Virus record (IMG/VR): IMGVR_UViG_3300027833_001879
Span: 1-56,816 of that record
Origin: a virus
Taxonomy: Duplodnaviria > Caudoviricetes
DNA length: 56,816 nucleotides
Reading direction: 5' to 3' (one strand)
Below are positions 160 to 56,409 of the stretch, piece after piece. Position numbers and translations under genes: made by a program. The number at the start of each line of letters is the position of its first letter. Position 1 is the stretch's first letter. A model generated the notes under the pieces. It saw nothing but the letters and a program-made list of their open reading frames with translations. It did no database searches and was not told the origin of the DNA.

Positions 160-328
160 TCTTTTTTTTCTTTTCTCTAATATTATTTAATGCTTTTTCT
201 AACCTAGTATTAAATGGCATATGTTTATACTCACCAGCTAATTCTGATAAACGCCTGCTCTCTGCAAGTACCTCATCTCTAATACCTTCATTATAAGCTT
301 CATATAATAAATCTTCAGGTTTAGCCAT
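146..328 (-). CDS. Hypothetical protein
   Basis: 60-aa ORF tightly coupled to both neighbours. Confidence 0.65.
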   Translation of the reverse strand: MAKPEDLLYEAYNEGIRDEVLAESRRLSELAGEYKHMPFNTRLEKALNNIREKKKKNENI

Positions 329-5302: not shown

Positions 5303-5312
5303 ATTTTTATTT

Positions 5313-5339
5313 TTATATAGTCAATTTATCTATTTGTTT
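5313..5339 (-). promoter_or_regulatory. Putative middle-type promoter
   Basis: AAAC-N16-TATATAA upstream of topoisomerase. Confidence 0.6.
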
Positions 5340-5523
5340 ACCTAAATGATCTTTTGAGTGTAGTGTTAAGAGAATGTAAATAAATATCAAAGTATCTTTC
5401 TTTATTTAAATGATCCCATTTAATTTTCCAAATAGATATTAATTTTTTAATAGCAGGATAATGATAACGGTTATTATTTTTATTTGTTATTACTTTTATA
5501 ACATATGTATAATCATCTATCAT
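5338..5523 (-). CDS. Hypothetical protein
   Basis: 61-aa ORF, ATGA overlap with upstream small ORF. Confidence 0.55.
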   Translation of the reverse strand: MIDDYTYVIKVITNKNNNRYHYPAIKKLISIWKIKWDHLNKERYFDIYLHSLNTTLKRSFR

Positions 5524-5666
5524 ATTGATCTGTTTCTTCTTACGTTATCCCACTGTACCTTTTTAGAAGAGCCTAACATTTTATACTTGGATACTTTGCC
5601 ATTAAACGAGTTCCTAGTTTGGTTAACTTGTGTTTGTCCGTTGTTTGTTTCTTGATTTGTTGTCAT
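5520..5666 (-). CDS. Small hypothetical protein (48 aa)
   Basis: Manual ORF MTTNQETNNGQTQVNQTRNSFNGKVSKYKMLGSSKKVQWDNVRRNRSI; A-rich leader; ATGA coupling to next gene. Confidence 0.6.
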   Translation of the reverse strand: MTTNQETNNGQTQVNQTRNSFNGKVSKYKMLGSSKKVQWDNVRRNRSI

Positions 5667-7410: not shown

Positions 7411-10400
7411 TTATCTGGTAACCTTAAATGCCCCATCAGGTATACTTAACATTGCAGTTTGTATTTGTGCAGGGAATCCAGATATTGCAGATGCAACTTT
7501 ACCGAGCTGGCGTTCTAATGCTTTGTTAGATGAACCAGATCTTGCTGCAGCAGGAGCACCACTAGAATTACCACCGGACTCACCTTCTGTTTTTGGTCCA
7601 AAGATTGAAAATCCAGTATCAGCCGGCTCAGCCATCATATCTCTGATATCTTCTACTGCTCTAGCTAATGCTTTATATGCTCCGCGATCATCTGACAGTT
7701 CAGAGCTTGATTTAAATAGATCACCAAATGCTACTGTCTTATCAATATCTATTTTATTAATAGAATCTGCGATTTTAGAAATTCCTTCAGCTGCCTTATC
7801 TAATAATCCTTTTTCTGCTACATCTCCTAATGTTACAATGAATGATGAGAAGTCGTGTAGTTGTGGTGATATAAGAGGATTAGTTTTATAAAGATCGCTA
7901 AATGCCGTTCCTATTGAAGTTAATAATGTACCAATAGATTTTGCAACCGAAACAGGATCAAAATCTCCACTAAACGCCTTAAGTCCTGCCGCTATATCAA
8001 TTAATGCATCACCAGCACCATCTACTGCGTCAATACCTTTTTCAACTAAGTTTTCATCCCAAGACATAAACCAATTTCCATCAGTTTCTTCTGCGCCACC
8101 AATAGAAGCAAATGCAGAACCAACCATTCCTAATACTTGTTTAATACTATTTGCTGTGGCTTCTGGATCTTTTAGACCAGCGAATGTTTCTAATGCGGTG
8201 GCAATTTTATTTAGTTCGGTACCTGCACCTTGTACAGCTGCAACACCTTCAGCAACTTTATTTTTTTTAATTCCAAATAAACTACTCCAAAACCCACCTG
8301 CTTCAACATTGCCTTCTTCAGCAACTGCAGCAAACGCTTCTTGTACAAATCCTATAGATTTACTAATGGCTGCACCTACTGCATCAAAATCTACGTTACT
8401 TTCTACTAATTTTTGAAACTCACTTAAACCTAATGCGATATCCTTTAATGCTTTACCTGCACTTTGTACTGATTGTACGCCTTCTTGTACTTTATTCTTT
8501 TTAATTCCAAATAAAGAACCGAAGAATCCACCTGCATCCACATTACCTTCATCAGCAACAGCGGCAAAGGCCTGTTGTACAAATCCTACAGATTTGCTGA
8601 TAGCAGCGCCAACTGCATCAAAATCTATATTACTTTCTACTAATTTTTGAAATTCACCTAAACCTAATGCAATATCTTTTAATGCTTTACCTGCACCTTG
8701 CACGGATGAAAGCCCTTCTGCAACTTTATTCTTTTTAATTCCAAATAAAGAACCAAAGAATCCACCTGCATCAACATTTCCTTCTTCGGCAACAGCAGCA
8801 AACGCTCTTTGTATAAAACCAACTGTTTTACTAATAGCCTCACCTAATACATCAAAGTCTACTTTAGAATCAACTAATTTTTGGAATTCAGTTAAGCCAA
8901 CAACTATACTAGTTAAAGCTTTACCTGCACCCATTACAGAATCAATACCTTTCTTAGTGGCATTAGGGCTGAATGCGTTTCCAAACACTGCTCCAAATAA
9001 CCCAGTTGGTGTTGCAGCTTCGCCACCAGCAGCAGCGAATGCACCTGTTATACCAGTCAATACGGTTGTTAGCTGTAAACTCTCATCAGCAGTCCAGCCT
9101 AATTTTTGATAATCTTTTAATCCTTTAGATAATTTAGTTAATGCCATACCGGCCGCTCCAAAACCTACAGCCGCTGCTGTCATTGCAACCGCATCAGCTC
9201 CACCACTTATTGCACCACCTATACTCTTAAAGATTCCACTTACTACTCCACCTTTATTAGGAGGTCCTATAAATGCTGTCTTTACACCTGCTAATGTAGT
9301 TGTTAAATTAAGAGCATCTTGTTCAGTAAAATTAACAGCCTGCATTGCTTTTAGGCCTGGTGCTAATGCTAGTAACCCTAAACCTATTGCACCAAAGGCA
9401 GCTGCACCTGGTATTATTGCAATCGCGGCAAGTCCTGCTGCTGCGAATACTAAACCTAATGCAGTTAATACACCAGCCTGAACAGCTACGCTGTCTAATG
9501 TTGCATCTTTTGTAGCTTTAGCAAATGGAGTATAACCTATACCAAATATAGCTAACCCAACTCCCATAAGGAAAAGAGAAAGTGCACCTTGTGCTATTAA
9601 ACTCAAACCTGCCCCTAATAGTGCAGTTACTAAACCAATGCCACCTAAGACCGCCAATTGTATACCAACTGCGCCAATAGTAGGTGCTGTGGATGCTACG
9701 AATGTTGCAAATATTGCATAGCCTATTCCAAAGACAATTAAACCCGCGCCCATAAGCATAAGGGATAATGATCCTTTATTAATTTGTTTATTTAATAATC
9801 CAATTATAGCGACAGCCCCACCTATTAAAACTATACTTGCAACCATTCCTAAAAGAATTTCAGGTTGCATCATAATAAAAAATGTAGTTATTGCAAATAG
9901 AGCTAAACCAACTGCAAATGATTTTAAAGCATCGCCTACTCTGTCTAATGCCCTTGCGCCTTTTCTTATTGGTTTGCTCATCTTACCAAGTAAGAACATA
10001 GCACCACCTATTAAAACTAAACTAGCAAGTAAAAAAGGAATTGCGACAAGTCCAACAATAGCTAATAATCCAGCTAAAGCTAAATTTTTAGCAAACTTTA
10101 ACATTGAAGAACTTATTAAATCTAAAACCTTTGCACCTTTCTTTACAGTCTTAGCTTCTTTACCTAATTTTACAAATGCAGGTGTAACTATACCAAGAGC
10201 AGTATTTAAAAGCTTTGCTCCAATAAGACCTATAGGTAATAAAAAAGTAGATAGTGCTAGATTTTTAGCAAAAGTACCAATAGAATTAGCTATTATCTCG
10301 AAAAATTGTGCAGCCTTTTTTAATTCCTTACCCTTTTCGCTTAATTCTAAAAATGTAGGCGTAATTATACCAAGAGCAGTATTTAAAAGCTTTGCTCCAA

Positions 10401-25524: not shown

Positions 25525-26322
25525 ATGCAAAGAAGAGCACTAAAAAAGATTACACAAGAACCTATAGCAAGTGTACGGTCAAGTAATATTACCAGAAGGG
25601 TTCTTCCTAATCGAAACATTAATAAAATTAAAAGCATACCTCCTGCTCGTGGACTTTCACAAAGACAATTAGAAATTAAAAATGCAGAAGTACCTGTCGG
25701 GAAACCAGTTGAGTACTCTGTTGTCCCAAGAAAATTTGAAGGAGAAACTATTTATATTATTGGTGGAGGTCCATCATTAAAGAATTTTAACTTTGATCAA
25801 TTAAAAGGGCTTAAAACTATTGTAATTAATAAAGCAGTATTTTTTCATCAGACAGCTGACGTATTATATTGGACTGATAGTAGATTTTATACTTGGTATA
25901 AAAACGACATAGATAATTTTAGCGGTTTAAAGTTTTCTTTAAAACCCGGAAGTCAATATACTAAAGATATAAAAGTTTTACGAAAAGGTGTGGCGCATGG
26001 TTTAGAAAAAGATCCTCATACATTAGCTCATGGGTATAATAGTGGATATGCAGCAATTAATCTTGCTTATCATTTAGGAGCTAACAGAATTGTCTTATTA
26101 GGGTTTGATATGCATAATACTAATAAAGATACTCATTTTCATGACGGTTACCCAACACGACCTGCAGGTGATCATATATACAGAGATAAATTTTTACCAG
26201 GATTTAAAGAATTAGAAAAAGATTTAAGAACAGTTGGTGTAACTGTTTTTAATGCATCTACACATAGTCAATTAAACACTTTTCCTAAAATTACATTGGC
26301 GCAAGCATTAAGCTTTAGATGA
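25525..26322 (+). CDS. Maf/DUF115 (MptE-like, sialyltransferase-fold) protein
   Basis: IIGGGPSL, IVINKA, NSGYAAINLAYHLGANRIVLLGFDM, HFHDGY, VFNAS..S.L..FPK. Confidence 0.78.
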   Translation: MQRRALKKITQEPIASVRSSNITRRVLPNRNINKIKSIPPARGLSQRQLEIKNAEVPVGKPVEYSVVPRKFEGETIYIIGGGPSLKNFNFDQLKGLKTIVINKAVFFHQTADVLYWTDSRFYTWYKNDIDNFSGLKFSLKPGSQYTKDIKVLRKGVAHGLEKDPHTLAHGYNSGYAAINLAYHLGANRIVLLGFDMHNTNKDTHFHDGYPTRPAGDHIYRDKFLPGFKELEKDLRTVGVTVFNASTHSQLNTFPKITLAQALSFR

Positions 26323-44149: not shown

Positions 44150-45274
44150 TTAGAATAAACTGGTTGTGTAAATAAGATTTCTGTTAAATGCCTTAAATCC
44201 CATTGCTGTAACAACACGATTAATTGGATCTAATATTGTTTTTTCAAATTGTCTGTCATGATCAATTTGTGGTGCAAATTCATAAGGATATTCCCCAGGT
44301 GCAAAAGCAAACACTTCACACGATTTGTCTGTTGAGAAATACATTTTACATTTTTCACCATTTCCTAGCGGTTGGTATTTACCTTTAGATGTAGAGTTAT
44401 TTAATAAATAATTATGATAGCCTGCAGATCTAACACCGATTGGGCACCTTGATGCAAATTCAAATGTTTCATAATCATTAACAATATACTTTTGATAGTT
44501 ATTTACTTTTCTTGAAAAACATATTTGATCTACATTTGCTAATTTAAATTGTCGTTTGATATCTTTAAGCAAAGCGGCAAAAGCTTTCATATCTAATTTA
44601 TCAACTGAGAAAATATATGTTAATAATTCTTTTAGTTTTTCTCTAGCAAAAATTGGGGTTGATGATTGAATAATTTCAAAACCCTTTGAGCTAATTTTAG
44701 ATAAGTCATCATAATGAATATCTGGATCTTTCCATACAATATTTTGCATGTACTTTTTCTTTGCTAACCATATTGCATTTTTGGCAATACTTTCTAATTC
44801 AAATGATAAAAAGTTTTCTGCATTATTATCATCAGCATATCTTTGAAGGATCTTTTCTAAATAACCATTTACCCTAACTTTATATAGCATTAAAATAAAT
44901 TCCTTTTCATCACCGTCAAATCCTTCTGATTTTGCTATGACTTCATCAAACTTAACATAAACTGAATCTGTATCAATATAAATACCTACTGGATTTTCAA
45001 TTCTACCGGTTACAGTAATTCCCATTTCTTTGTGGGCAGCAATATCTTTATGCCAATATTGACTAAAGTATCTATTTAATAATTCCTCAGTGTAAAGAAT
45101 AGCATCTTTACCTTGTAAAGTAATAGTTTCTGCAATATCTACATTAAAAAAATAAAAATAAGGATTACCAAATGCACCATAAATAGAGTTAAGCATTAAT
45201 TTAACAGCCTGTTCATAGTTATAAAACTTTGATGCTTCTTTATTAATTTCTTGTAATTCGGTAAGATCTTGCAT
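44150..45274 (-). CDS. gp43: Family B DNA polymerase, C-terminal subunit (split gp43)
   Basis: QAVKLMLNSIYGAFGN (motif B), ITLQG, YIDTDS (motif C), AKKKY, KGFEI..SSTP; no exonuclease domain or motif A. Confidence 0.9.
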   Translation of the reverse strand: MQDLTELQEINKEASKFYNYEQAVKLMLNSIYGAFGNPYFYFFNVDIAETITLQGKDAILYTEELLNRYFSQYWHKDIAAHKEMGITVTGRIENPVGIYIDTDSVYVKFDEVIAKSEGFDGDEKEFILMLYKVRVNGYLEKILQRYADDNNAENFLSFELESIAKNAIWLAKKKYMQNIVWKDPDIHYDDLSKISSKGFEIIQSSTPIFAREKLKELLTYIFSVDKLDMKAFAALLKDIKRQFKLANVDQICFSRKVNNYQKYIVNDYETFEFASRCPIGVRSAGYHNYLLNNSTSKGKYQPLGNGEKCKMYFSTDKSCEVFAFAPGEYPYEFAPQIDHDRQFEKTILDPINRVVTAMGFKAFNRNLIYTTSLF

Positions 45275-45371: not shown

Positions 45372-46121
45372 TTAATCTTCGTCGGTAATTGCTACTGCGA
45401 CTGTTAAGTGGGTATTTGTATCTAATGATTTAAATACTACCTTGTTGCTACAAACTATAACCTTGTAGTTTTCTTTATCTAAAAGATTAATATATTTCTT
45501 GTAAATTACAACCTTTTGCCCTACTACATCATCTCCTTCGTATGAATGTGCTAATGTAGCATCATATGATGGTCCTTGTACAGCAACGCCTTTATCTGTT
45601 ATTGCTAAAGTAAAGGTATCCTCATCTCTTTCTAAATTAAATAATGATTTCATTTTATCTACGTGTGTAGTTAAAAGATCAAATTGAAAGATACTTCCAT
45701 CAGTACTAAATGCACGATCAGTTTCTTCTTTACTCATTTCCATAAATGATAAAGATGGATCCGCACATGCTAAATTAATTTTAAGATCATCATTTTCAAT
45801 TGTAAAATCACTTGCCATTAATTCTCCATCAATTTCAGTGTACTTAATCTTACCTTGAATATCTCCATTAAAGTGAGATAGAGCATCTATAACTTTAGTA
45901 CCGTTATAAAAACTTACCTTTACTGAACTGTCAATATCCGTATCAAAGATATCAGATGTTGGGGTTGATACTAATTTCACTGCATCCCTCTCAGGAAAGT
46001 ATACAGATGAAACTGTTCCTTGTTTACCGATTTTCATAAATATGAATTTATCAATTGGTAAAAGCTTTTTGACAAAGGTACTTAATTCGTAACCGTCAAT
46101 CTTTTTAATAGTTGCTTCCAT
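45372..46121 (-). CDS. gp45: Sliding clamp (gp45-like)
   Basis: 249-aa acidic two-domain alpha/beta protein, ADPSL linker, L..ENYKV.V pattern, next to polymerase. Confidence 0.65.
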   Translation of the reverse strand: MEATIKKIDGYELSTFVKKLLPIDKFIFMKIGKQGTVSSVYFPERDAVKLVSTPTSDIFDTDIDSSVKVSFYNGTKVIDALSHFNGDIQGKIKYTEIDGELMASDFTIENDDLKINLACADPSLSFMEMSKEETDRAFSTDGSIFQFDLLTTHVDKMKSLFNLERDEDTFTLAITDKGVAVQGPSYDATLAHSYEGDDVVGQKVVIYKKYINLLDKENYKVIVCSNKVVFKSLDTNTHLTVAVAITDED

Positions 46122-46143: not shown

Positions 46144-46169
46144 TTATATGCATTAATTTAATTTAGTTT
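46144..46169 (-). promoter_or_regulatory. Putative middle-type promoter
   Basis: AAAC-N15-CATATAA. Confidence 0.6.
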
Positions 46170-47437
46170 TAAAATGTACTATTAACTTTATACTTCTTTT
46201 TTGGTGTTGCACCAAGCTCTTCAGTTACTAGTATTTTTTGATTCGTATTATCCTGTTTCATAAATGTAAAGTTTGTCATTTTAGCTTTACCTTCACAGAA
46301 TTTTTTAACCTCAACAGCCATGTCCATTGCAGTTGTTGCTGGTACATTCTGAGCAATATGATTAACTTGCCTAGCATCTTTAATACCAAAGTCTAAAGGT
46401 AATCCCATTAAGTGTAACATTTCTCTAATGTTTAGGTATCGGTTTTCTGTAGGATGAACACCATTAAACATATTTCTACCAATAAGAGCAGAAAAGCTTT
46501 CATTAAAGAAATGCGGTGAAGCATCCCAATAACCTAAACCTTGACTTGTTTTATATTTCTGATGCTCTAACATATCACCAAATGATTTTGTAGATTTTTT
46601 ATTAGAGAATCCTTGTTTATGATATTTTTTATCTAACCATTGAATACATTCATCTAAAAGATCGTTCTTTTCTAAATATTGAGCAATTGTACCTTTACCA
46701 AATTTCTTAGCAAAGTCAGCATGATTTAAACCTTCCTTCTCTAATACAAATTCATAAGGTTTGTAATGATCAGTTACCTTTCCTGCTACCATAAACATAT
46801 CTTGTAGTGTTGCATTTTCTGGTACTTCTGCAAGATAATCTATAAGATGTTTCTTTTCTCTGAATTTCCATTCCAATAAAGGTACGGTTGGTGTATTCCA
46901 AAAGAAATAGAATGTTCGTATTCTTCTTTGTGGGATTCCATGTAATTCAGTATTTGTTTTAATTAAAGAAAAGCTATATCCATATTTTTCACCAATAGCC
47001 TTTAGTCTATTAACAACGCCTTCACCCATTTTAGTAAATAATCCTGGTGCGTTTTCACCCCATAAGACTTTAGGTTTAACATTCTCTAAAACATACTCCG
47101 ATGAATTATACATCCATTGATTTTGAACCGCATCAGATCCTCTAGATGAGGCACTACCACTAGCAGAATTTAACTGTGACAATCCTGCACAAGGGCAAAC
47201 TGAGTTTACAAAATCAACTTGTTCAAATGTTTGATTAGGAATATCTAATTCTTCATGATCTAGTCTATACATCGGTACTTCTGGCCAATAATCTTCAATA
47301 TGACTTTCATTTGCAGCAAATGCTTCATAGCTTAAATGAAATGCTGGTAAATTACCTGTTGCTTTATTACAACCTATTGCGCTACCACCAATTAGTGGAA
47401 TTATAGTACCCCATTTTAATTCTTTTTCTTTATCCAT
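46169..47437 (-). CDS. DNA cytosine-C5 methyltransferase (divergent phage type)
   Basis: IPLIGG (variant motif I), CPCAGLS (motif IV), GENAP (VI), HGIPQRRIR (VIII), RYLNIRE..LMGLP.DF, IAQNVP. Confidence 0.88.
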   Translation of the reverse strand: MDKEKELKWGTIIPLIGGSAIGCNKATGNLPAFHLSYEAFAANESHIEDYWPEVPMYRLDHEELDIPNQTFEQVDFVNSVCPCAGLSQLNSASGSASSRGSDAVQNQWMYNSSEYVLENVKPKVLWGENAPGLFTKMGEGVVNRLKAIGEKYGYSFSLIKTNTELHGIPQRRIRTFYFFWNTPTVPLLEWKFREKKHLIDYLAEVPENATLQDMFMVAGKVTDHYKPYEFVLEKEGLNHADFAKKFGKGTIAQYLEKNDLLDECIQWLDKKYHKQGFSNKKSTKSFGDMLEHQKYKTSQGLGYWDASPHFFNESFSALIGRNMFNGVHPTENRYLNIREMLHLMGLPLDFGIKDARQVNHIAQNVPATTAMDMAVEVKKFCEGKAKMTNFTFMKQDNTNQKILVTEELGATPKKKYKVNSTF

Positions 47438-47442
47438 TAGTT

Positions 47443-48465
47443 TTATATTTTTACTTTTTCAATTTCTAAATCTTCCATAAATGTTAAAGGATTAATAGTT
47501 CCTTCATTAACTTCATTTTTTAAGTAAGATATAGTTTCCTTTATTGTATCTACAATATCTTTTTTAGGATCCCAGCCCATAGACTTTGCCTTAGAGACAT
47601 CTCCAAAAGAATATACTGCTTCACCTGCAATTGCATCATAATGATCAAATGGTATACCGCTTACATCCATTTCATCAGCAATTAAGTTTTTAAGATCTAA
47701 TAGGTTTGTCATTTTACCTGTTCCTAAATTAAAAGTTTGGTTTGCAGTATCTTCATTTTCCATACAGAGAATATGGAACGCATTAACATCGGCAACATTA
47801 ATATAATCCCTTGATTTTTTATAGTCACCAAATACAATAGGATTATGACCACCCATTATTCTTAGTATAAAACCAGCAAATACTGGAGGTACTGTTCTAT
47901 GATAATCCTGCAAAGGTCCTGCTACATTAAAATATCTAAGTGCAGTATAATTTAAACCTTTAGTTCTTTGATAAGATTCTGCTAACAGCGCAAGACATGC
48001 TTTTGTTGTAGAATAAATTGTTGTTGGATCTGATTGAGTTTCATTATAACCAGCATCACCCATTTTACAATTTTCATATACAGCTGAAGTTTCGCTAAAA
48101 ATAATTCTTTTTACATTTGCCTTAACACAACCGTTCATTACATTAATACTTCCTAAAATATTATTATCTACTGCTTCATAGGGGTCTGCGTTACAATCAT
48201 AAATGGAAACCCAGCCTGCAAAATGATATACATAATCTGGTGCAAATTTTTCAATTACAGTTTCAACATATTGATTTCTAATATCTACTTTATTAAAATT
48301 TTTAATTTTATCATGAACTTTAGGAATGTAGGTACCATTAGACATATTGTCAACAATTGCAATACAGTCTGGGTTATGGCCTCTATTTAGTAAATCATTA
48401 ATAAAATTGGTACCAATAAAACCAGCACCACCTGTTACTAGGATTTTTGTTTCTGAATTATACAT
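47443..48465 (-). CDS. NAD-dependent nucleotide-sugar epimerase/dehydratase
   Basis: TGGAGFIG, YSTTK, LRYFNVAG, RDYINV.D, FNLGTG. Confidence 0.92.
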   Translation of the reverse strand: MYNSETKILVTGGAGFIGTNFINDLLNRGHNPDCIAIVDNMSNGTYIPKVHDKIKNFNKVDIRNQYVETVIEKFAPDYVYHFAGWVSIYDCNADPYEAVDNNILGSINVMNGCVKANVKRIIFSETSAVYENCKMGDAGYNETQSDPTTIYSTTKACLALLAESYQRTKGLNYTALRYFNVAGPLQDYHRTVPPVFAGFILRIMGGHNPIVFGDYKKSRDYINVADVNAFHILCMENEDTANQTFNLGTGKMTNLLDLKNLIADEMDVSGIPFDHYDAIAGEAVYSFGDVSKAKSMGWDPKKDIVDTIKETISYLKNEVNEGTINPLTFMEDLEIEKVKI

Positions 48466-48469
48466 ATTT

Positions 48470-49714
48470 TTATTTTGTTATTTTATTATAAGCTTCCCAG
48501 ATTTTATTATCTACATGCTCTCCGGTATAATAGGAATCTTTTAAGTATTTTTCTTGGAGATTATAGAAGAGCTTTTTATAATGATCTGGGTTTGCATTTA
48601 AAAACTCTACTTTCTTTTTTAAATCTTCTGGAGATTTACATCTAATGAAATGCCCATCAGGGAAGACATTAAATTCAGTATCGTAAGACGGGTGTAAGAA
48701 TGGTATAATACCATAGTGTAACATTTCTGCATACTTAGAGGTTACCATTCCTTCTTTAATGGGTACACAGAATGTATACTTAGTAGAAAGTAATTCATCC
48801 GTCATTGATTCAATTCTTTTTTCACCTTTGAACCACTGAGGATATTTTTCTTTTAATTCATCATCCCACTTACCATAAATATCTGTCTTTATATCATTCT
48901 CTACAATATAATCTTTAACAGGATCCCATCGGTCCATTCCTCCTGTACCTTTTCCTTGATTTTGTAACATCATAAATGAATTTGTCTTTTTCATTTCAAA
49001 CAATTCATCAGTGTTATACCTAGTCTTATCTAAAAGAAAGACAGTTTCAATACCTGAATATTCATAAGTAGAAGTAATTGTTTTAACATCTCTTAGTGGT
49101 GGTTGATAAAAATACTGCTCTTCTTTTGTAAAATTATTTTGAGCTAAGTAATATGTAGGTCTATTATTAATACCCCAATCTTTACAGGCTAATACATATC
49201 GATTATCTACAAGTAAACCAACAATTGGTACTTTCTTTTCCAATTCATTCATTGCTTGAATTATTGGTGCTGCATAATATTTAAAAAAGTCTAATGATTT
49301 AACTTGACCATTTCCATCCTTCTTGTTAATATAATTAGGTATATTAACTGTACTTGATGGCCCAGTGTAAAAGAAAATAAAATCTAAATCTAATTCTTTT
49401 ATAAATTTTACAGTTTCATCAGCAGATTTTCTATTCTCCATTTTAGAATGAAATTCATGAATGTTTGATTCTGCCGCTGACTCTGCTTTAATAGGATCTC
49501 CAAATAATGATTGAACTGCCGGCTTTTCTTTTGCTCTAACTCTGCCTAAATCATTAGGACTTAATAACCAATATTCAATATTAGGATTTCTTTTTGCTAT
49601 TGCATTTATTAATTGCTTAGGTTCACAATCTCCACCGATTGCGCCCCAACTGTTTTCATTAAACTTAATCGCTTTACCAAGTTTAAAGAAACCTACTTTT
49701 TTAACATTTTCCAT
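48470..49714 (-). CDS. GT-B fold glycosyltransferase, putative DNA-base glycosyltransferase
   Basis: N-terminal GFFKLGKAIKF...GGDCE...RNP, C-terminal DIYGKW, KYTFCVP...VTSKYAEM..GIIPF.HP.YD. Confidence 0.65.
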   Translation of the reverse strand: MENVKKVGFFKLGKAIKFNENSWGAIGGDCEPKQLINAIAKRNPNIEYWLLSPNDLGRVRAKEKPAVQSLFGDPIKAESAAESNIHEFHSKMENRKSADETVKFIKELDLDFIFFYTGPSSTVNIPNYINKKDGNGQVKSLDFFKYYAAPIIQAMNELEKKVPIVGLLVDNRYVLACKDWGINNRPTYYLAQNNFTKEEQYFYQPPLRDVKTITSTYEYSGIETVFLLDKTRYNTDELFEMKKTNSFMMLQNQGKGTGGMDRWDPVKDYIVENDIKTDIYGKWDDELKEKYPQWFKGEKRIESMTDELLSTKYTFCVPIKEGMVTSKYAEMLHYGIIPFLHPSYDTEFNVFPDGHFIRCKSPEDLKKKVEFLNANPDHYKKLFYNLQEKYLKDSYYTGEHVDNKIWEAYNKITK

Positions 49715-50419
49715 TTAACACGTTTTAATTAAATCTTCTATTACTTCTTTATCATTTTCATATGTTAGATCATACCAACATATATTTAATTCCTCAAACT
49801 TTAAATTATCCATTGAATTAATAAGATGGGTAATTTCATATTCATTCCTATTTGACATTTTAATACTATCAAGATTGTCAAATGCTTCTTTTGAAAATAT
49901 CATATAACCACAGAAATATCTTCCTGAAACAATTCCATGTGGTTTTTCTATAACAACATTTTCTAATATGGAAGCTAATTGTAAATTCCTAGCTCTTGTA
50001 TCATAATCTTTGTAAGTAACTACTGTACTGTTTGGATCATGATATTCTAATCCTATATTTCCTTGATAATAATTGTCACCGAATAAACATAAGAATGCTT
50101 CATTAAATTTACCAGACCAAACTTTTATTGCTGCACCTGGACCATATTCATTATCTTGCTGAAATTCATAAAATATATTAATCTTATTTTTATATTGATT
50201 AAGTTTTTCAATAATAGGATGAGATAATTTTACATTGCCCTTAAAAAAGAAATCTGCTTTGCTTATTGTAACATAACAATCTTCTATTCCATTTTCAATG
50301 CAAAATTCAATACAATATTCAATAGTAGACTTTCCTAAAATAGGATCTACTAATTTATTCTTACCATACCTGGTGGATTTTCCTGCTGCTAATATAATTG
50401 CCTTTGTTACTCTACTCAT
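49715..50419 (-). CDS. Sugar-phosphate nucleotidyltransferase (RmlA-like)
   Basis: IILAAGKSTRY, GDN, IEKP, SNRNEYEIT. Confidence 0.88.
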   Translation of the reverse strand: MSRVTKAIILAAGKSTRYGKNKLVDPILGKSTIEYCIEFCIENGIEDCYVTISKADFFFKGNVKLSHPIIEKLNQYKNKINIFYEFQQDNEYGPGAAIKVWSGKFNEAFLCLFGDNYYQGNIGLEYHDPNSTVVTYKDYDTRARNLQLASILENVVIEKPHGIVSGRYFCGYMIFSKEAFDNLDSIKMSNRNEYEITHLINSMDNLKFEELNICWYDLTYENDKEVIEDLIKTC

Positions 50420-51162
50420 TTTGTATATTTTATTTCTAATTCATCAAATAATTCATGCCCCTTTTTAAGAAAACTTCCTGCTAATTCATATCTTTCATTT
50501 AACTCAAAGAAAGGTACCGCACCTAATAAATGTACAGCTAAAAAGAATTTTAATTGATACTCATCACACCACTCATACATAATTTTTTCTGCACCCTTAC
50601 AGAAGCTACTATATTTTTTATTGTGGTTATTGTATATATGGGATTCATACTCCATTGCAAATGATTGCATTAATTTACCGTAGTCATAATAGTTTTGCTC
50701 TTCGGTTCCTCGCGGATCAATAAATAAGAAGTCTTTATCATGTAAAATATTACTTACTGTTAAATCACCATGAACAAAACCCCATGATGAGGTTGCATCA
50801 AACTTACCTTCATAAGTATAGCCTGTTCTTAATTGTAGCTTATCAAAATAATCTTGGGTCTTTACATCAGATCCTACATTATCAAATTTACCTATTATAG
50901 AAATTAAATTTTCTAATTGTCCTAATGAAGTATTTAGTGGCTGAGTTAAAATTTTATCATACCAAGTAGAATATCTTTTCATTTCATAACTTGTTTCTGA
51001 TAAAGGTTTAATGTCAATAAAGTTAGGATGATCACAGCACATTAAAAAATCCATTTGTTGTTTGAATTTTTCTGGATAATGCCCAGCTTCTTTAATTACT
51101 TTATTACCTTGCAGAAATACTTTATCTCCGCTGTTTCCTACTAAAATTTTACTATTATGCAT
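50416..51162 (-). CDS. APH / choline kinase-fold phosphotransferase (putative sugar kinase)
   Basis: GNSG, HGDLTVSNIL, FIDPRG, YDYGKLMQS. Confidence 0.82.
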   Translation of the reverse strand: MHNSKILVGNSGDKVFLQGNKVIKEAGHYPEKFKQQMDFLMCCDHPNFIDIKPLSETSYEMKRYSTWYDKILTQPLNTSLGQLENLISIIGKFDNVGSDVKTQDYFDKLQLRTGYTYEGKFDATSSWGFVHGDLTVSNILHDKDFLFIDPRGTEEQNYYDYGKLMQSFAMEYESHIYNNHNKKYSSFCKGAEKIMYEWCDEYQLKFFLAVHLLGAVPFFELNERYELAGSFLKKGHELFDELEIKYTK

Positions 51163-51692
51163 TTTATTCCAAGTTTACGTGCAAAAGTTAAATCCACATC
51201 AGAATCCCCAACCATTAGGAAGTCTTCAAAATTATATTGTGGAAATTGTTCGAATATTAAGTGCCCCATATCTGGTGACGGTTTTTTATTTGGTACATCT
51301 TCTCTAGTATATATGTAATCAAATAAAGAAGGTTCTATTTGATGATAGCTCATAATTCTATCTACATTTTCCCTAGATGAATTTGATGCTATTACTAAAT
51401 TTTTAAATACTTTACTCTTACACATATATAAAAGTAATTCATTTACTTTAGTTTTATGTAAGTTTTTAGAAAATATTTCTTTTTTATACTTCTGTGCTAA
51501 TTTGCTTTCTTTAGGAGTTAATTGATATTTTTCTAGCAAAACATCCATTCCATAATTAATATCAGCAAGAATAGCAGAAAGTGGTATTTCTACATTTAAA
51601 ACTTTTTCTAGTGCCTTTCTCCAAGAATCGGCATGAATCTCAATAGTTTTAACTAAAGTATCATCAAAGTCTAACATTAAACATTTTTCCAT
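51141..51692 (-). CDS. HAD-family phosphatase / phosphomutase
   Basis: DFDDTLV, ASNS, KKPSPD, VGDSDVD. Confidence 0.9.
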   Translation of the reverse strand: MEKCLMLDFDDTLVKTIEIHADSWRKALEKVLNVEIPLSAILADINYGMDVLLEKYQLTPKESKLAQKYKKEIFSKNLHKTKVNELLLYMCKSKVFKNLVIASNSSRENVDRIMSYHQIEPSLFDYIYTREDVPNKKPSPDMGHLIFEQFPQYNFEDFLMVGDSDVDLTFARKLGIKCIIVKF

Positions 51693-51711
51693 ATAAATTA
51701 CTGATTTATTA

Positions 51712-51737
51712 TTATATGGATAAATTAATAAATGTTT
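51712..51737 (-). promoter_or_regulatory. Putative middle-type promoter heading the modification operon
   Basis: AAAC-N15-CATATAA. Confidence 0.6.
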
Positions 51738-51764
51738 TAAGAGTGCTAGAGATATTTTTAAGAC

Positions 51765-51794
51765 AAAAAAAGACCGCCTAGAAGGCAGCCTTTT
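51765..51794 (-). terminator. Rho-independent terminator
   Basis: Minus strand AAAAGGCTGCC-TTCTA-GGCGGTCTTTTTTT. Confidence 0.85.
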
Positions 51795-51814: not shown

Positions 51815-51991
51815 TTAGAGATTATTCTTAGTCTCTTGAACATGTAATCTTACTTCTTGTGCTAGATTTTTAATATCTTGCATAGTTTTACGAATTCTTA
51901 CAGCAGCAGCTTTATTTCCTTTTACATAAAATTTATCTACATCTTCAGTACATGCTTCGATTAACGCTTTGATTTCTTCAAATTTTTCCAT
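51815..51991 (-). CDS. Histone H1-like protein Hc1 family (58 aa)
   Basis: Manual ORF MEKFEEIKALIEACTEDVDKFYVKGNKAAAVRIRKTMQDIKNLAQEVRLHVQETKNNL; KGNKAA..R.RK signature. Confidence 0.85.
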   Translation of the reverse strand: MEKFEEIKALIEACTEDVDKFYVKGNKAAAVRIRKTMQDIKNLAQEVRLHVQETKNNL

Positions 51992-52038: not shown

Positions 52039-52950
52039 CTAGAACTTGCCTTCACGATTTCTATAAAAGCTTGTTACTTTAGGAATGTACATATAATTTT
52101 TTCCTGCATCCTTTACATTCATCATGACTCTTTTGAACATATCCCAATCAGCAGGTAGTATTCCACCTGAATCGGATGGAGCACCTTTTAGTTTAGGGGC
52201 AGTGTTTTTTTGTTGATCTGGATTTCTATATCTTAAATCTCCAGTTATGCTAGGTCGCCAAGATACTGCTGAATGTGAAGTATCGTTTGGCCCATATCCT
52301 TTATTATTAGGTTTCATTTCTATACCGTCCTTTTGAGGTTGCATAAATATTTTCTTTTTGGTATTAAATGCAGTTACTTTCTTTTTACTTCTAGTAAAAA
52401 CAAATCCTAAATCAGGATATTGTGAATATGCTTTTGCTATTAATTCTAAGTGATTAGGGGCCCATTTATCGTCATGGTCTAATCTAATGATATAATCACA
52501 ACCATCTTTCTTAGCCATGTCTAGTGAGTCATTAAGTGCACCACAGCCTGCAGTAAAGCGAATTTGTTTGGTTGTCCACTTTTTATTATTTCTTTCTCCT
52601 GGTGTAGATCTGTTTTGATATTGTAGCTGATCTTTAGGAATAACATCTTCCATTACTTTTTTAATTTCACCTTCATCGCCTTCATACTTATCAGCAGTTA
52701 AGTATATTTTCCAATTCTTGTACTTCTGAGCTTTAACAGAATTTAACGCGTCAGCCAAGACACCTGGTGTAGTCATATGTTTAGCTCTTTGTTTATTAGC
52801 AGCGCCGGCATTCATATCATGTGTTGCCATAACAATACCAAATTTAATATCCTTATCAATATTAGGACCTAAGTTCTTTTCTAATAAGATTTTAAAATTA
52901 TCAGAACTGATGTAAGCTTCTAATAAATTATATTCTTCAAATGTTATCAT
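52039..52950 (-). CDS. GT-A / family 2 glycosyltransferase
   Basis: IVMAT, ALNSVKAQKYKNW, RLDHDDKW.PNHLE, DWDMF. Confidence 0.88.
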   Translation of the reverse strand: MITFEEYNLLEAYISSDNFKILLEKNLGPNIDKDIKFGIVMATHDMNAGAANKQRAKHMTTPGVLADALNSVKAQKYKNWKIYLTADKYEGDEGEIKKVMEDVIPKDQLQYQNRSTPGERNNKKWTTKQIRFTAGCGALNDSLDMAKKDGCDYIIRLDHDDKWAPNHLELIAKAYSQYPDLGFVFTRSKKKVTAFNTKKKIFMQPQKDGIEMKPNNKGYGPNDTSHSAVSWRPSITGDLRYRNPDQQKNTAPKLKGAPSDSGGILPADWDMFKRVMMNVKDAGKNYMYIPKVTSFYRNREGKF

Positions 52951-54062
52951 TTTTTAAAAAATGTTTTTATTGACTTTATTATTCTTTGCATGTCCTCATC
53001 TGTTAGATCTGAACCTGATGGTAAACAAATACCTTGTAAGAATAATAAAGAACTGTTTCCATTTATATATTTTTTATACTCTTGCATAACTGGTTGTTGG
53101 TGCATTGGTTTCCATATTCTCCTACCTTCAATATTATCATTTGCTAAATGTGCAATTAAATCATCAGGGCGATCTTCACCGTTCATAAGGGCGCAAGTTA
53201 ACCACATATTAGATCTATCATTTTCTTGCTCTTCTTGGAATGAATAAAAAAGATCTCCTAATTCTTTTCTGTAAATTTCATTAACTTCTCGAGTTCTTTT
53301 TATCCTATCCTCAATTACCTCCATTTGACCAACACCAATAGCTGCTAGTACATTGCTCATTCTATAATTATAACCAATTTCTTTGTGATGGTAAAATGGC
53401 ATTGGTTCTTTGGCTTGAGTAGATAAGAACCTCATATAATCTGCCTTCTCTTTGTCATTAGTTACAGCAACGCCGCCACCTGAGGTAGATAATAATTTAT
53501 TTCCATTAAAAGAATAAACGCCAATAGAACCAAAGGTTCCTGTATGTTTATCATCGGTAGTAGAGCCAAGACTTTCTGCTGCATCTTCAATAATAGGTAT
53601 GTCATATTCATCTGATAATTTTTTAATTGCTTTCATATTACAGGGTACCCCAAAAATATGAACTGGTATAATAGCTTTTGGTTTTTTACCTATTGCCATT
53701 GAGTTAAGAATTGCAGTTTCTAATAATAAAGGATCCATATTCCAACTACCTTCCTCAGAATCAATAAAAATAGGCTCAGCTCCACAATATAAAATTGGAC
53801 TCACTGTAGCTACGAAGGTTAATGACGAGCATAAAACAAAATCACCAGCCTCTACTTGTAATGCGCGTAATGCTAGATGAATTCCAGCTGTGCATGAAGT
53901 AACCGCTACTGCATGGTGTGCTCCAGTATATTCTTTAACTCTTTCTTCAAACAAATTTAAGTGAGGTCCAATTGGAGCTATCCAATTATCTTTAAATACA
54001 TCTTTAATATATTTTAGCTCATTGCCTGACATATGAGGCGGTGATAAGTAAATCTTTTTCAT
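52947..54062 (-). CDS. pglE: DegT/DnrJ sugar aminotransferase (PglE/EpsN-like)
   Basis: IYLSPPHM, NWIAP.GP, EDAAESLG, SFNGNK..TSGGG, GYNYRMSN, WKPMH.QP, CLPSGS. Confidence 0.92.
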   Translation of the reverse strand: MKKIYLSPPHMSGNELKYIKDVFKDNWIAPIGPHLNLFEERVKEYTGAHHAVAVTSCTAGIHLALRALQVEAGDFVLCSSLTFVATVSPILYCGAEPIFIDSEEGSWNMDPLLLETAILNSMAIGKKPKAIIPVHIFGVPCNMKAIKKLSDEYDIPIIEDAAESLGSTTDDKHTGTFGSIGVYSFNGNKLLSTSGGGVAVTNDKEKADYMRFLSTQAKEPMPFYHHKEIGYNYRMSNVLAAIGVGQMEVIEDRIKRTREVNEIYRKELGDLFYSFQEEQENDRSNMWLTCALMNGEDRPDDLIAHLANDNIEGRRIWKPMHQQPVMQEYKKYINGNSSLLFLQGICLPSGSDLTDEDMQRIIKSIKTFFKK

Positions 54063-54063
54063 A

Positions 54064-54612
54064 TTATTTAATTTTAGCAGGATTACCGTATGCTGTTGAA
54101 TTATTAGGAATATCTTTAGTTACAACTGAACCTGCACCAATCATACAATTTTTACCAATTTTAATGTAAGGTAATATTGTTGCACCTGCCCCTATAAATG
54201 TACATTCTCCAATTTCTACACCACCACACAGTGTTGCATTAGGTCCTATAAAACTAAAGTCTCCTAAGACACAATCATGATCTATAGAAGCTGCTGTATT
54301 AATTATACAATGTTTTCCTATTTTAGTACCAACTTGAATTATTGAGCCATGTAGTATCTGTGAACCTTCGCCTGGGTCTATGTCACATATTGCAGTGTGA
54401 TGTATTACAGTTTTAAATTCTTTATCTTTTAGTTTATTTGCTATTTTTTTTCTATCTTTATTATTACCTATTGCAATTACCCAAGGATCCATTGCAGTAT
54501 CATCAAAATCATCATCATTATAATCTTCTACAAAATGAGGATTTTCTGTGTGGTTAATTATAACATCTGTAACAACTCTTGCATGCCCACCTTTTCCGTA
54601 AATATTAATCAT
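54064..54612 (-). CDS. pglD: Sugar N-acetyltransferase (PglD/NeuD family)
   Basis: YGKGGHA.V, AIGNN..R, INT..SIDHDC, hexapeptide repeats, GNPAK; start set at MINIYG. Confidence 0.9.
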   Translation of the reverse strand: MINIYGKGGHARVVTDVIINHTENPHFVEDYNDDDFDDTAMDPWVIAIGNNKDRKKIANKLKDKEFKTVIHHTAICDIDPGEGSQILHGSIIQVGTKIGKHCIINTAASIDHDCVLGDFSFIGPNATLCGGVEIGECTFIGAGATILPYIKIGKNCMIGAGSVVTKDIPNNSTAYGNPAKIK

Positions 54613-55666
54613 TGCTTTCTCTTTTAAATTCTGGAACAATACTTTTCATTAATAGAAGTATCTTATAAAAATCGTTTGATCTTATTTTAGATAACTTTTC
54701 TATTTTAGGTATTAAAGTTTTAAAATCATATTCTTCATGATTTAATTTCATAATGTTATGGTCATTAGTAGGAATCATATTTTCACCATTACATAATAGC
54801 TCTTCATATAACTTTTCGCCTGGCCTTAAACCTATGTATTCAATTTCAACATTACTTTTAAAATGTTTAATTAAATTTTTTGCTAAATCTGTAATACTTA
54901 CAGGTTCACCCATATCAAACAGAAACACTTCACCGCCCTTTCCTAATACACCTGCCTGTAATACTAATTGGCATGCCTCTGGTATAGTCATAAAATATCT
55001 TATAACTTCTTTATGAGTAACACTCACAGGACCACCCTGTTTAATTTGTTTTATAAATGTTGGAATTACTGAACCTTCAGATCCTAACACATTACCAAAT
55101 CTAGTTACTATAAAGTTAGTAGCTGATTTAGTTTCTAAGAACTGAGTGTATAATTCTGCTATTCTTTTAGTTGCACCCATTATGTTTGTAGGATTAACTG
55201 CTTTATCAGTTGATACCATAACAAATTTATCAACCTCATTCATAAAGGAAATATCAGCAACATTCTTTGTTCCTAGAACATTTGTTTTAATTGCTTCAAT
55301 TGGATTAGCCTCCATCATAGGAACATGTTTATAAGCAGCTGCATGAAATACTACATTAGGTTTAAAAGAATCAAAAACTTCTTCTAATCTATACTTATCT
55401 CTTACATCACCTATTACATATTTAATATGGGATTTTGGATTTGATCTACTTATCTCTTGTCCTAGATGAAACATAGATGCTTCGGCATTATCAAAAACAG
55501 TTACTGATGAAGCATCAAAATTAACAAGCTGTCTTACTATTTCACTACCTATTGAACCAGCACCACCGGTAACAAGAATTCTTTTACCTTTAATAAAATC
55601 TTTAATTGAGTTAAGATCAGTTATTATAGGTTTGCGATTTAATAGCTTAGAATAGTCTAAATTCAT
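54605..55666 (-). CDS. pglF: UDP-GlcNAc 4,6-dehydratase (PglF/CapD catalytic domain)
   Basis: TGGAGSIGSE, HAAAYKHVP, STDKAVNPTNIMGATK, RFGNVLGS.GSV, RPGEKLYEEL. Confidence 0.93.
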   Translation of the reverse strand: MNLDYSKLLNRKPIITDLNSIKDFIKGKRILVTGGAGSIGSEIVRQLVNFDASSVTVFDNAEASMFHLGQEISRSNPKSHIKYVIGDVRDKYRLEEVFDSFKPNVVFHAAAYKHVPMMEANPIEAIKTNVLGTKNVADISFMNEVDKFVMVSTDKAVNPTNIMGATKRIAELYTQFLETKSATNFIVTRFGNVLGSEGSVIPTFIKQIKQGGPVSVTHKEVIRYFMTIPEACQLVLQAGVLGKGGEVFLFDMGEPVSITDLAKNLIKHFKSNVEIEYIGLRPGEKLYEELLCNGENMIPTNDHNIMKLNHEEYDFKTLIPKIEKLSKIRSNDFYKILLLMKSIVPEFKRESND

Positions 55667-56409
55667 ATATTATTTATTTGAGACACTAACCAATCCAATT
55701 CAACTTGGCTTTCAGAATCCGATATTGCATTTTCAGGATCTGGGTGAGTTTCAATAAATACTCCATCATATTCAAATATCTTAGCTGCTTGTGCATATTG
55801 TTTTGCTAACTTGCGACTGCCTCCAGTTATACCTTCTCCAGCCATTTGAGTTGAATGAGTACAATCTAAAATAACTTTGTCTGCAAATTCTTTCATTACA
55901 TCTACACCTCTAAAATCTACAATTAATCTATCATACCCAAAATTAGATCCTCTTTCAGTTACCCATACTTCACAATTAGGATCAACCTCTTTAATCTTTG
56001 CAACTGCATGTTTCATTGCATCAGCAGATAACCATTGACCTTTCTTAATATTAATTATATTAAAGTTTTTTGCACACGCTACTAAAAGATCTGTTTGTCT
56101 ACATAAGAATGCTGGTATTTGAATAACATCAACTACATCTGAAAGTGGTAATGCTTGGCTAGGCTCGTGTATATCAGTTACAATTCTAATATTAGGATAA
56201 GCTTCTTTAATACTTTGCATAATCCTAATACCTTCGTCTAATCCTGGACCTCTATCAGAATGTATAGAAGTCCTGTTAGCTTTATCAAAAGAACCTTTTA
56301 AATACCAATCTTTACCTCCCATATAACCATCTAAGGTTTTGGCTACTTCTAAAAAGTTATCCTCGTTTTCAATACTACAAGGACCGAGTATGTATGTATA
56401 ATTTTTCAT
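55663..56409 (-). CDS. kdsA: KDO8P synthase (metal-dependent type)
   Basis: GPCSIE, SFDKANRTS, QIPAFLCRQTDL, NIKKGQW, ERG..FGY, D.THS.Q, FIETHPDP..A.SD. Confidence 0.95.
   Translation of the reverse strand: MKNYTYILGPCSIENEDNFLEVAKTLDGYMGGKDWYLKGSFDKANRTSIHSDRGPGLDEGIRIMQSIKEAYPNIRIVTDIHEPSQALPLSDVVDVIQIPAFLCRQTDLLVACAKNFNIINIKKGQWLSADAMKHAVAKIKEVDPNCEVWVTERGSNFGYDRLIVDFRGVDVMKEFADKVILDCTHSTQMAGEGITGGSRKLAKQYAQAAKIFEYDGVFIETHPDPENAISDSESQVELDWLVSQINNI

Follow-up and report, generated by a model that had tools for sequence, protein, structure and literature searches.

Phage T4 carries glucosylated 5-hydroxymethylcytosine (5hmC) in its DNA, for which it uses the UDP-glucose of the host, and it encodes no sugar-activation genes, epimerase or C5 methyltransferase. 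RB69, DLP3 and HY126 carry arabosyl-5-hydroxycytosine. It has been reported that their system comprises AfhE, AfhF, an arabinose-5-phosphate isomerase and GT-B arabinosyltransferases, and RB69p051-053 have been equated with AfhF (a HAD phosphatase) and AfhE (a kinase-nucleotidyltransferase), which make UDP-arabinose (PMC13326640). A third kind is formed by the 'subclass II' clusters of Pyle et al., in which a glycosyltransferase (GT) adjoins an epimerase; these clusters were defined around a methyltransferase (MT) and a TET-type dioxygenase, the 5hmC activity of such phage GTs depends on the adjacent epimerase, and the GT neighbours in the survey include ThyS, methyltransferase, APH phosphotransferase and gp45/clamp genes (bioRxiv 10.1101/2023.12.21.572611). 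The present study concerns an operon of six intact genes (46169-51692, minus strand) in the IMG/VR virus record IMGVR_UViG_3300027833_001879, which was analysed over its entire length of 56,816 nucleotides (the window). This operon probably provides the sugar half of a system for T4-type hypermodification of cytosine, in a T4-like marine phage that has not been cultured. The enzymatic steps, the sugar and DNA as the target are inferred from gene content, gene order, conservation, fold similarity, signature residues and co-occurrence. The operon and the signals ahead of it, in the order of transcription, are as follows.

51711-51794, minus strand: terminator hairpin of the preceding Hc1-like gene, then a sigma-70-like promoter site (consensus matches only)
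51141-51692, minus strand: HAD-family (type IA, capped) phosphatase/mutase, 183 aa
50416-51162, minus strand: APH-fold kinase-like protein, 248 aa
49715-50419, minus strand: sugar-1-phosphate nucleotidyltransferase, 234 aa
48470-49714, minus strand: GT-B glycosyltransferase of a T4-BGT-like family, 414 aa
47443-48465, minus strand: NAD-dependent SDR, GalE-like NDP-sugar 4-epimerase, 340 aa
46169-47437, minus strand: C5 cytosine DNA methyltransferase-family protein with non-canonical motifs I and II, 422 aa

The locus resembles T4 in the gp42 (dCMP hydroxymethylase) signature of a thymidylate-synthase (TS) paralog, in a homologue of the dCTPase gp56 present in its relatives, in a GT whose best structural match is the T4 DNA beta-glucosyltransferase (BGT), and in the neighbourhood of uvsX. 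Apart from the sugar-activation genes, epimerase and MT that T4 lacks, it differs in that the window GT has no sequence similarity to T4 BGT and that the TS paralog shares only 31% identity with gp42. With RB69, DLP3 and HY126 it shares a kinase, a HAD phosphatase and a nucleotidyltransferase, which would give a phage-made NDP-sugar (PMC13326640), and with RB69 also a TS paralog, a thymidylate-kinase-like (Tmk-like) kinase and GT-B enzymes between pol and uvsX; distant relatives of the GT carry homologues of RB69p051-053. However, the kinase and nucleotidyltransferase of the window are separate genes and not one bifunctional protein, its HAD is a 183-aa HAD_2/type IA protein whereas AfhF has about 115-130 aa, an epimerase is added, the operon holds no isomerase, and the TS paralog is without D169N. 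The C5-MT-like gene is a further difference from RB69 and DLP3, the word 'methyltransferase' being absent from the main text of PMC13326640. The adjacent GT and epimerase are as in the clusters of Pyle et al., but the TET-type dioxygenase of the latter was not found in the window or in five related, incomplete records. Bacillus phage G has, within gp301-gp315, an MT-like gp301, nucleotidyltransferase gp309, HAD gp310 and kinase gp311 along with GTs and Tmk; its GTs, unlike that of the window, are annotated as AGT-like (AGT, the T4 alpha-glucosyltransferase) and not of the BGT-like family, and its genes are interspersed with others. The original prediction had presented the operon as the best candidate for an undescribed system. 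This goes too far, as the kind is already known from T4, from the arabinosylation of RB69 and DLP3 and from metagenomic GT and epimerase clusters, of which the operon is a variant.

The glycosyltransferase and its gene neighbourhoods

The GT is proposed to be a DNA-type GT-B enzyme and is a predicted DNA 5hmC glycosyltransferase; its structural match shows a shared fold only. At the sequence level Pfam gave a sub-threshold match to Glyco_trans_1_2 (20.1 bits against a cut-off of 25), and phmmer against PDB sequences returned nothing useful. An exhaustive HMMER search placed the protein in a family of 388 representative clusters (E<=0.001). An AlphaFold2 model, built with an alignment of 75 of these clusters, reached pLDDT 93 and pTM 0.91. 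The comparison of the GT with T4 AGT and BGT by Foldseek, which had been suggested earlier, gave T4 BGT at ranks 1-6 of the PDB matches (E 5.5e-11 to 2.7e-8) and T4 AGT at rank 19. T4 BGT was also placed first by VIA-align (ranks 1-4, Z 22.6-21.8, rmsd 3.5-3.9, 310-317 residues aligned), followed by 6eji (Z 20.1), BshA (19.6) and T4 AGT (19.1). In BFVD, the rank 2 match of the model (1.5e-28) is annotated as DNA beta-glucosyltransferase.

The gene neighbourhoods of distant relatives are the strongest evidence for the reading as DNA modification. Loci found with a 7-sequence GT alignment were dereplicated to 15 IMG/VR lineages outside the window's own. Within about 8 kb of the GT a nucleotidyltransferase was found in 12 of the 15, a small HAD in 11, an MT-like gene in 10, a gp42-type TS in nine and uvsX in six. 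The co-occurrence across phages that had been put forward as a check agrees with the original prediction, the GT recurring with gp42-type hydroxymethylases in 9/15 lineages. The TS genes of these lineages are 48-55% identical to T4 gp42, and RB69p051, p052 and p053 have homologues in their small HAD proteins and their fusions of nucleotidyltransferase and kinase, with E down to 4.7e-14 and 8e-16. BLAST annotation of distant loci identified ORFs for both a Tmk-like protein and a TS of gp42 type, which in L160 and L164 are consecutive and overlap; in L092 a split kinase and nucleotidyltransferase set as in the window also lies beside GT and MT. In T4 the gene order is 42, beta-gt, segA, uvsX, and the RB69 arabinosylation cluster lies between gene 43 and uvsX. 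The operon of the window sits two genes before uvsX. From these positions next to uvsX in T4 and RB69, the module sits at the classical DNA-modification locus of T4-like genomes.

The GT matches eight records in the phage collection searched, and at least 80% of the protein is spanned in five of them, namely Pseudoalteromonas phage XG4 and four records of three Enterococcus Denvervirus phages. In XG4 the order is TS-like, small HAD, fusion, GT, 368-aa ORF, MT-like, and it is the only cultured phage of the collection with both the GT and the MT-like gene. In Enterococcus phage Planchet the GT homologue stands among genes for a nucleotide kinase, a TS/pyrimidine hydroxymethylase, a dUTPase, a thymidine kinase, a nucleotidyltransferase-kinase and a small HAD. 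A literature search on DNA modification in Enterococcus Denvervirus phages returned nothing specific. It was also observed that two annotations of Planchet (L003, OX422066, 6018-7990) look wrong: PLANC_62, called a glycosyltransferase, is a fusion of nucleotidyltransferase and APH-like kinase, and PLANC_63, called a polynucleotide kinase, is a small HAD phosphatase. The two proteins have their homologues in RB69p051-053, and the TS homologue of Planchet has the dCMP-hydroxymethylase signature.

Proposed acceptor supply and sugar activation

Two genes at the left edge of the window bear on the acceptor.

1-159, minus strand: thymidylate-synthase paralog (dCMP hydroxymethylase type), first 53 codons, cut by the contig end; proposed source of the 5hmC acceptor
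328-939, minus strand: thymidylate-kinase-like nucleotide kinase (Pfam Thymidylate_kin 6.1e-6, 26.5 bits, cut-off 27); proposed kinase for modified dCMP

The two are separated by a 60-aa ORF, and a guanylate-kinase-like gene is also nearby, as in RB69, in whose cluster a Tmk-like kinase and a TS paralog are found as well (PMC13326640 Table 1). A Pfam TS-family search of the window gave no match, because only 53 N-terminal residues of the paralog are present. The signature was therefore read from a full-length orthologue in a 181-kb relative (L052:1465-2349), aligned with T4 gp42 and a canonical ThyA of the lineage; relatives encode such a canonical ThyA in addition. The orthologue matched MilA, a CMP hydroxymethylase (2.3e-25), and T4 dCMP hydroxymethylase (4.6e-24) ahead of thymidylate synthases (from 2.8e-13). 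It has Asp at the positions of E. coli L143 and N177 and keeps Asp169, as T4 gp42 does in the same alignment; the Asp at the E. coli D169 position (D171 in T4 numbering) is invariant in all 15 aligned TS sequences. According to published work, N177D marks a dCMP substrate and an acidic residue at L143 marks a hydroxymethyl instead of a methyl product; D169N marks 5-hydroxy-dCMP (5ho-dCMP) synthases, Asn being present in all those tested (PMC13326640). Since Asp is found at L143 and N177 and Asp169 is kept, the paralog reads as a 5-hydroxymethyl-dCMP synthase. The 5hoC route was tried for this enzyme and rejected, as the paralog keeps Asp169 and is without the marking Asn.

Going by this signature and by MilA and T4 gp42 as top PDB matches, the acceptor very probably comes from the TS-like enzyme. 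This was one of two sources that the original prediction had named; nothing was found to point to the other, the methyltransferase. The earlier statement that no TET/JBP enzyme is visible also agrees with the search, Tet_JBP (PF12851) giving no match in the window or in any of the five related records, all of which are incomplete genomes. A T4 gp56 homologue (35% identity, 2e-21) was detected in two of the five records (G002, G004), just past the end of the window, and the Pfam MazG search matched one of the five; none is inside the window, which ends before the corresponding region. The operon is hence not 'self-contained' as had been proposed, for some 46 kb separate it from the TS paralog and the Tmk-like kinase at the window edge, and the dCTPase lies outside the window. 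In the relative G001, the TS paralog is directly followed by a 405-aa YheC/D-like ATP-grasp protein (L052:2365-3582), past the window's left end. ATP-dependent ligases decorate modified bases in other phages, and this protein could belong to the modification system.

The sugar-activation genes were identified to different degrees. The HAD has a Pfam HAD_2 match (1.6e-24) and is homologous to phage G gp310 (phmmer 1.8e-9); it differs from the small AfhF-type HAD of most other GT lineages and does not match RB69p051. It is proposed to strip the distal phosphate from a sugar bisphosphate. The kinase-like protein has no Pfam match; it matches phrog_21938 (5.4e-11), its nearest ESM-Atlas clusters are APH/RIO1 phosphotransferases (score 0.97-0.98), and it is homologous to phage G gp311 (1.3e-10), which in turn matches the RB69p052 kinase (3.9e-6). 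It is a putative anomeric (C1) sugar-phosphate kinase. The nucleotidyltransferase was found by Pfam (NTP_transf_3 1.2e-6, NTP_transferase 1.5e-4), by PDB 2ggo, a sugar-1-phosphate nucleotidyltransferase (9.4e-9), and by phage G gp309 (3.3e-12); gp309 matches RB69p053 at 3.5e-6. It is 37% identical to an S-CBWM1 gene that adjoins a small phosphatase. The neighbours of gp309-gp311 in phage G include a thymidylate kinase, an MT-like gene and two genes annotated as alpha-glucosyltransferases. None of the three window proteins matches RB69 proteins directly (kinase and nucleotidyltransferase compared with RB69p052 and p053 at E<=0.01).

The epimerase is covered by Pfam Epimerase (2.1e-45) and phrog_540 nucleotide-sugar epimerase (2.2e-58), and its best PDB matches are UDP-glucose 4-epimerase 4zrm (4.3e-41) and 6dnt (1.8e-41), the latter named only NAD-dependent epimerase/dehydratase. 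A heptose-type pathway, with a kinase, GmhB-like HAD, nucleotidyltransferase and HldD-like epimerase, was considered; the epimerase fits GalE (1.3e-40) better than heptose epimerase (1.9e-29), all of these scores being under the curated cut-offs. A SIS domain, as expected of an arabinose-5-phosphate isomerase, was not found in the window; SIS ORFs occur in two of the five related records, far from the operon. The earlier proposal that the phage makes its own NDP-sugar is in line with these data, as kinase, HAD, nucleotidyltransferase and epimerase fit it and precedents exist in RB69 and DLP3 (PMC13326640) and in GT and epimerase clusters (bioRxiv 10.1101/2023.12.21.572611). The names that had been given to the six genes held for HAD, nucleotidyltransferase, epimerase and C5 methyltransferase (Pfam, PHROGs, NCBIfam), less firmly for the GT with its sub-threshold Pfam match, and for the kinase by way of the APH/RIO clusters of ESM-Atlas.

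Taken together, the following mechanism is probable. The TS paralog would convert dCMP to 5-hydroxymethyl-dCMP, and the gp56-like dCTPase and Tmk-like kinase would bias the nucleotide pool, so that 5hmC is incorporated at replication. The APH-fold kinase may phosphorylate C1 of a sugar phosphate, the HAD enzyme would take off the distal phosphate, the nucleotidyltransferase would form an NDP-sugar, and the GalE-like enzyme would epimerize it. The BGT-like GT-B enzyme would then flip out 5hmC in duplex DNA and glycosylate its hydroxyl, and glycosylated 5hmC could shield the DNA against restriction and CRISPR nucleases.

Layout of the operon and its lineage

The six genes are packed as tightly as had been described, with junctions, in gene order, of 22-nt overlap, 4-nt overlap, 0, 4 and 5 nt. 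A scan of viral contigs with the window GT gave 42 related IMG/VR loci at 74-99% identity. In 36 of them the full set of six is present in unchanged order, and the other six loci end at contig edges with the surviving order kept. In the 36 full loci the operon is flanked by the Hc1-like gene on one side and a 249-aa gene on the other. Ahead of the first gene (HAD) there is a terminator with a 12-bp stem (51794-51768), then a TTAAAA-18-TATAAT site (51740-51711). Promoter-like sites are not enriched in the region, 44 being found against 45.5 expected from shuffles. No MotA-box-like sequence was seen; the 'middle-type' promoter of the original prediction is thus not borne out, while the terminator and a sigma-70-like site are present, and the terminator does separate the operon from the upstream sugar genes as had been claimed.

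Some relatives have extra ORFs, of 205-223 aa between epimerase and MT (L027:9845-10462, L010:10280-10951) or of 331-338 aa after the MT (L033:11554-12549, L034:11528-12538, L014:5556-6572). Pfam gave no match for the two that were sampled (L027:9845-10462, L033:11554-12549), and these ORFs may have been added to the pathway in particular lineages. Next to the operon on its upstream side is a 58-aa histone H1-like Hc1 gene (51815-51991, minus strand; Pfam PF07432, 1.3e-23) with its own terminator; it shows 78-97% identity in the relatives spanning it, and such a chlamydial/Bacteroidota-type nucleoid protein is unusual for a phage. Downstream, a clamp and a polymerase had been named as neighbours. 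The polymerase is there, but as the C-terminal part only of a split family-B DNA polymerase gene (44150-45274, minus strand; phrog_1918, 1.2e-64). The clamp candidate (45372-46121, 249 aa) is weakly clamp-like: a sliding-clamp cluster appears only at ESM-Atlas rank 27, and neither a Pfam or PHROG match nor BLASTP similarity to T4 gp45 was found.

The window is an entire IMG/VR virus record of 56.8 kb with a CheckV completeness of about 15% and a G+C content of about 30%, and almost all of its genes are on the minus strand. It contains T4-type genes for head, portal, prohead protease, clamp loader, UvsX, helicase, a Mre11/Rad50-like protein and a family-B polymerase. The portal protein shares 61% identity with its counterpart in an uncultured phage of 462 kb, followed among the matches by further uncultured phage records (635-735 kb) and the Lak megaphages. 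From the portal matches and the T4-type gene set, the window is a fragment of a large uncultured T4-like myovirus. Contigs of relatives reach at least 181 kb among the IMG/VR loci and about 219 kb among those from which the protein matches come. A nucleotide search with the operon against 50,697 phage records gave no match.

Alternative explanations and implications

Several observations weigh against the operon being the sugar half of a DNA hypermodification system. The TS paralog is about 46 kb away and truncated. The kinase, nucleotidyltransferase and HAD are tied to the Afh-type proteins of RB69 only transitively through phage G, and the HAD belongs to a different subfamily from the AfhF-type HAD of RB69. 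A T4 BGT protein search in the five records showed no sequence-level similarity to the window GT; moreover, GT-B folds are alike, and only about 2 Z units separate T4 BGT from the unrelated GT that follows, a margin that is a lead and not a proof. A C5 methyltransferase is hard to fit in a genome that is expected to hold little plain cytosine. Finally, surface-glycan-type genes lie directly upstream and a relative has KdsD-like and KdsB genes, which means that the phage makes glycans for another purpose too.

A second sugar block (52039-56409, minus strand) encodes a GT2, a DegT-type aminotransferase, a PglD-like acetyltransferase, a PseB/PglF-type 4,6-dehydratase and a KdsA-like enzyme, a set typical of a diacetamido-trideoxyhexose or nonulosonic-acid pathway; five related loci (L018, L019, L021, L022, L029) lack PglD and DegT. 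In a relative (L053, G001:67659-71057), a KpsF/GutQ-type arabinose-5-phosphate isomerase (ORF 1387-2052, 4.4e-50) is followed by a KdsB CMP-Kdo synthetase (ORF 2052-2759, 5.9e-65). With isomerase, KdsB and the KdsA-like enzyme of the window, the lineage appears to carry most of the CMP-Kdo pathway. Among the few plus-strand ORFs of the window is one with an MptE-like/DUF115 domain (25525-26322, 6.5e-9), a domain that occurs in Maf-type sugar transferases.

On the strength of these genes it could be argued that the operon belongs to an auxiliary glycan pathway, in which the GT modifies host surface polysaccharide, LPS or virion proteins and the MT is an unrelated anti-restriction neighbour. BshA, TarM, PimA and other non-DNA GT-B enzymes are only 2-4 Z below T4 BGT, which would agree with such a role. 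Yet the best structural matches of the GT are to T4 BGT, a DNA enzyme; the GT family is repeatedly found beside gp42-type hydroxymethylases, dUTPase or Tmk-like kinases and uvsX in unrelated phages; and the operon is invariant while the upstream block varies and is set apart by the terminator. We consider this explanation unlikely, because it does not account for the BGT-like fold, the recurrent neighbourhood of hydroxymethylase, dUTPase, Tmk and uvsX, and an invariant operon beside a variable block.

The MT-like protein requires separate consideration. It genuinely belongs to the C5-MT fold: Pfam DNA_methylase (PF00145) matches at 2.1e-18 (67.3 bits against a cut-off of 22), and its AlphaFold2 model (pLDDT 90) matches MET1, DNMT1, M.HaeIII and M.HhaI in fold. 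While phmmer of the MT against PDB sequences gave nothing useful, the MT profile reached PDB methyltransferases. The subfamily comprises 2,759 protein clusters at E<=1e-5, from marine phages. In 45 diverse members C83, E128 (ENA), Q170/R172/R174 (QxRxR) and N364 (the Asn of QNVP) are invariant. The non-canonical motif I noted earlier (IPLIGG) is a fixed signature of the subfamily, (V/I)PLIGG, and Ser stands in 43/45 where PDB 3g7u has the motif II Glu; the motif III Asp is kept in 40/45, and CPC is likewise found in 40/45. The predicted complex of GT and MT-like protein scored 0.00 against a mark of 0.32, without controls, and no inference is drawn from it.

The contexts of the subfamily were taken from 35 dereplicated loci outside the window lineage, 30 of which have at least 3 kb of upstream sequence. 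Among the 30, a gp42-type TS is found within 9 kb in 24, a recognizable GT in 16, uvsX in nine and a nucleotidyltransferase in eight, figures to which the conserved T4-like gene order contributes. The ORF just before the MT is a recognized GT in eight of the 30, with gaps of -13 to +2 nt from the MT start; in 16 it was not recognized with the small reference set. In L160:8962-11378 a tandem pair of MT-like genes, 46% and 42% identical to the window MT, follows an AGT-like GT and a 496-aa ORF. S-TIM5-type cyanophages (in S-TIM61, L004, OP053361, at 4763-5599 and 7983-9200) encode a member of the MT-like subfamily with 32% identity, together with a 'ThyA' whose N177 position is Asp and whose L143 position is Cys. 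This 'ThyA' may modify dCMP, as a TS partnered with the MT subfamily of the window.

The default reading is that the MT-like protein is a conserved companion which methylates residual unsubstituted cytosines. However, given the probable synthesis of 5hmC at the nucleotide level and a dCTPase in relatives, there is no obvious substrate for a C5 methyltransferase, and the pairing of a C5-MT fold with such synthesis is an unexplained and very widespread oddity of this system. C5 methyltransferases are capable of SAM-independent reactions on 5hmC in vitro. It has been demonstrated with CmoX of Synechococcus phage S-B43 (PDB 8yf3) that the C5-MT fold can transfer other groups and that a phage enzyme of this family can create a handle for hypermodification (PMC12783734). 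CmoX has the same fold and is the best profile-to-PDB match of the subfamily (1.2e-10). Its defining features are an SPPC motif and Arg350, which takes the place of the Asn in motif X (PMC12783734), whereas the window subfamily has CPC and the invariant Asn. The identity of the MT-like protein as a CmoX-type carboxymethyltransferase was rejected on this ground, there being no SPPC and Asn364, not Arg, in motif X in 45/45 (CmoA was not searched for).

It might then be imagined that the MT-like protein works on 5hmC or glycosyl-5hmC, exchanging or processing the 5-substituent through covalent Cys-C6 catalysis and giving an undescribed base. Besides the CmoX precedent, the frequent company of gp42-type TS and GT genes, the close coupling to a preceding GT, the altered motifs I and II and the gp56-like dCTPases of relatives, which imply little plain cytosine to methylate, would all suit this possibility. 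But the catalytic Cys, ENA, QxRxR and QNVP Asn are invariant and the motif III Asp is mostly kept, as expected of an ordinary SAM-dependent MT; the Enterococcus phages and five of the 15 GT lineages have no MT gene; and in S-TIM5-type cyanophages the MT is present with no annotated GT within 8 kb of it. Such chemistry therefore seems improbable to us.

Least probable, and very doubtful, is that the DNA is glycosylated on another acceptor, either ether-linked 5hoC as in RB69 and DLP3 or 5hmC made from MT-made 5mC by an unrecognized oxidase: the Afh-like logic of kinase, phosphatase and nucleotidyltransferase is that of the 5hoC arabinosylation systems (PMC13326640), the lineage has an arabinose-5-phosphate isomerase, and the MT-like gene adjoins the GT as in MT/TET/GT clusters (bioRxiv 10.1101/2023.12.21.572611), but the TS paralog keeps Asp where the tested 5ho-dCMP synthases have Asn (PMC13326640), TET/JBP was not found in the window or the five incomplete records, and the isomerase, which adjoins KdsB far from the operon, therefore points to Kdo synthesis.

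The probable assignment of the operon to T4-type cytosine hypermodification concerns a lineage that is abundant in marine metagenomes. The BGT-like GT family (388 clusters) and the MT-like subfamily (2,759 clusters) mark a widespread module of dCMP hydroxymethylase, sugar activation, GT and MT. Glycosylated cytosines decide which restriction, CRISPR and type IV defences act on a phage, and they also affect DNA sequencing and amplification. If the DNA carries an unusual sugar, this would matter for the quantification of viromes, for the biology of host range and as a source of new DNA-modifying enzymes in biotechnology. If the MT-like protein does act on a modified base, this lineage and the marine phage subfamily would carry an undescribed cytosine derivative.

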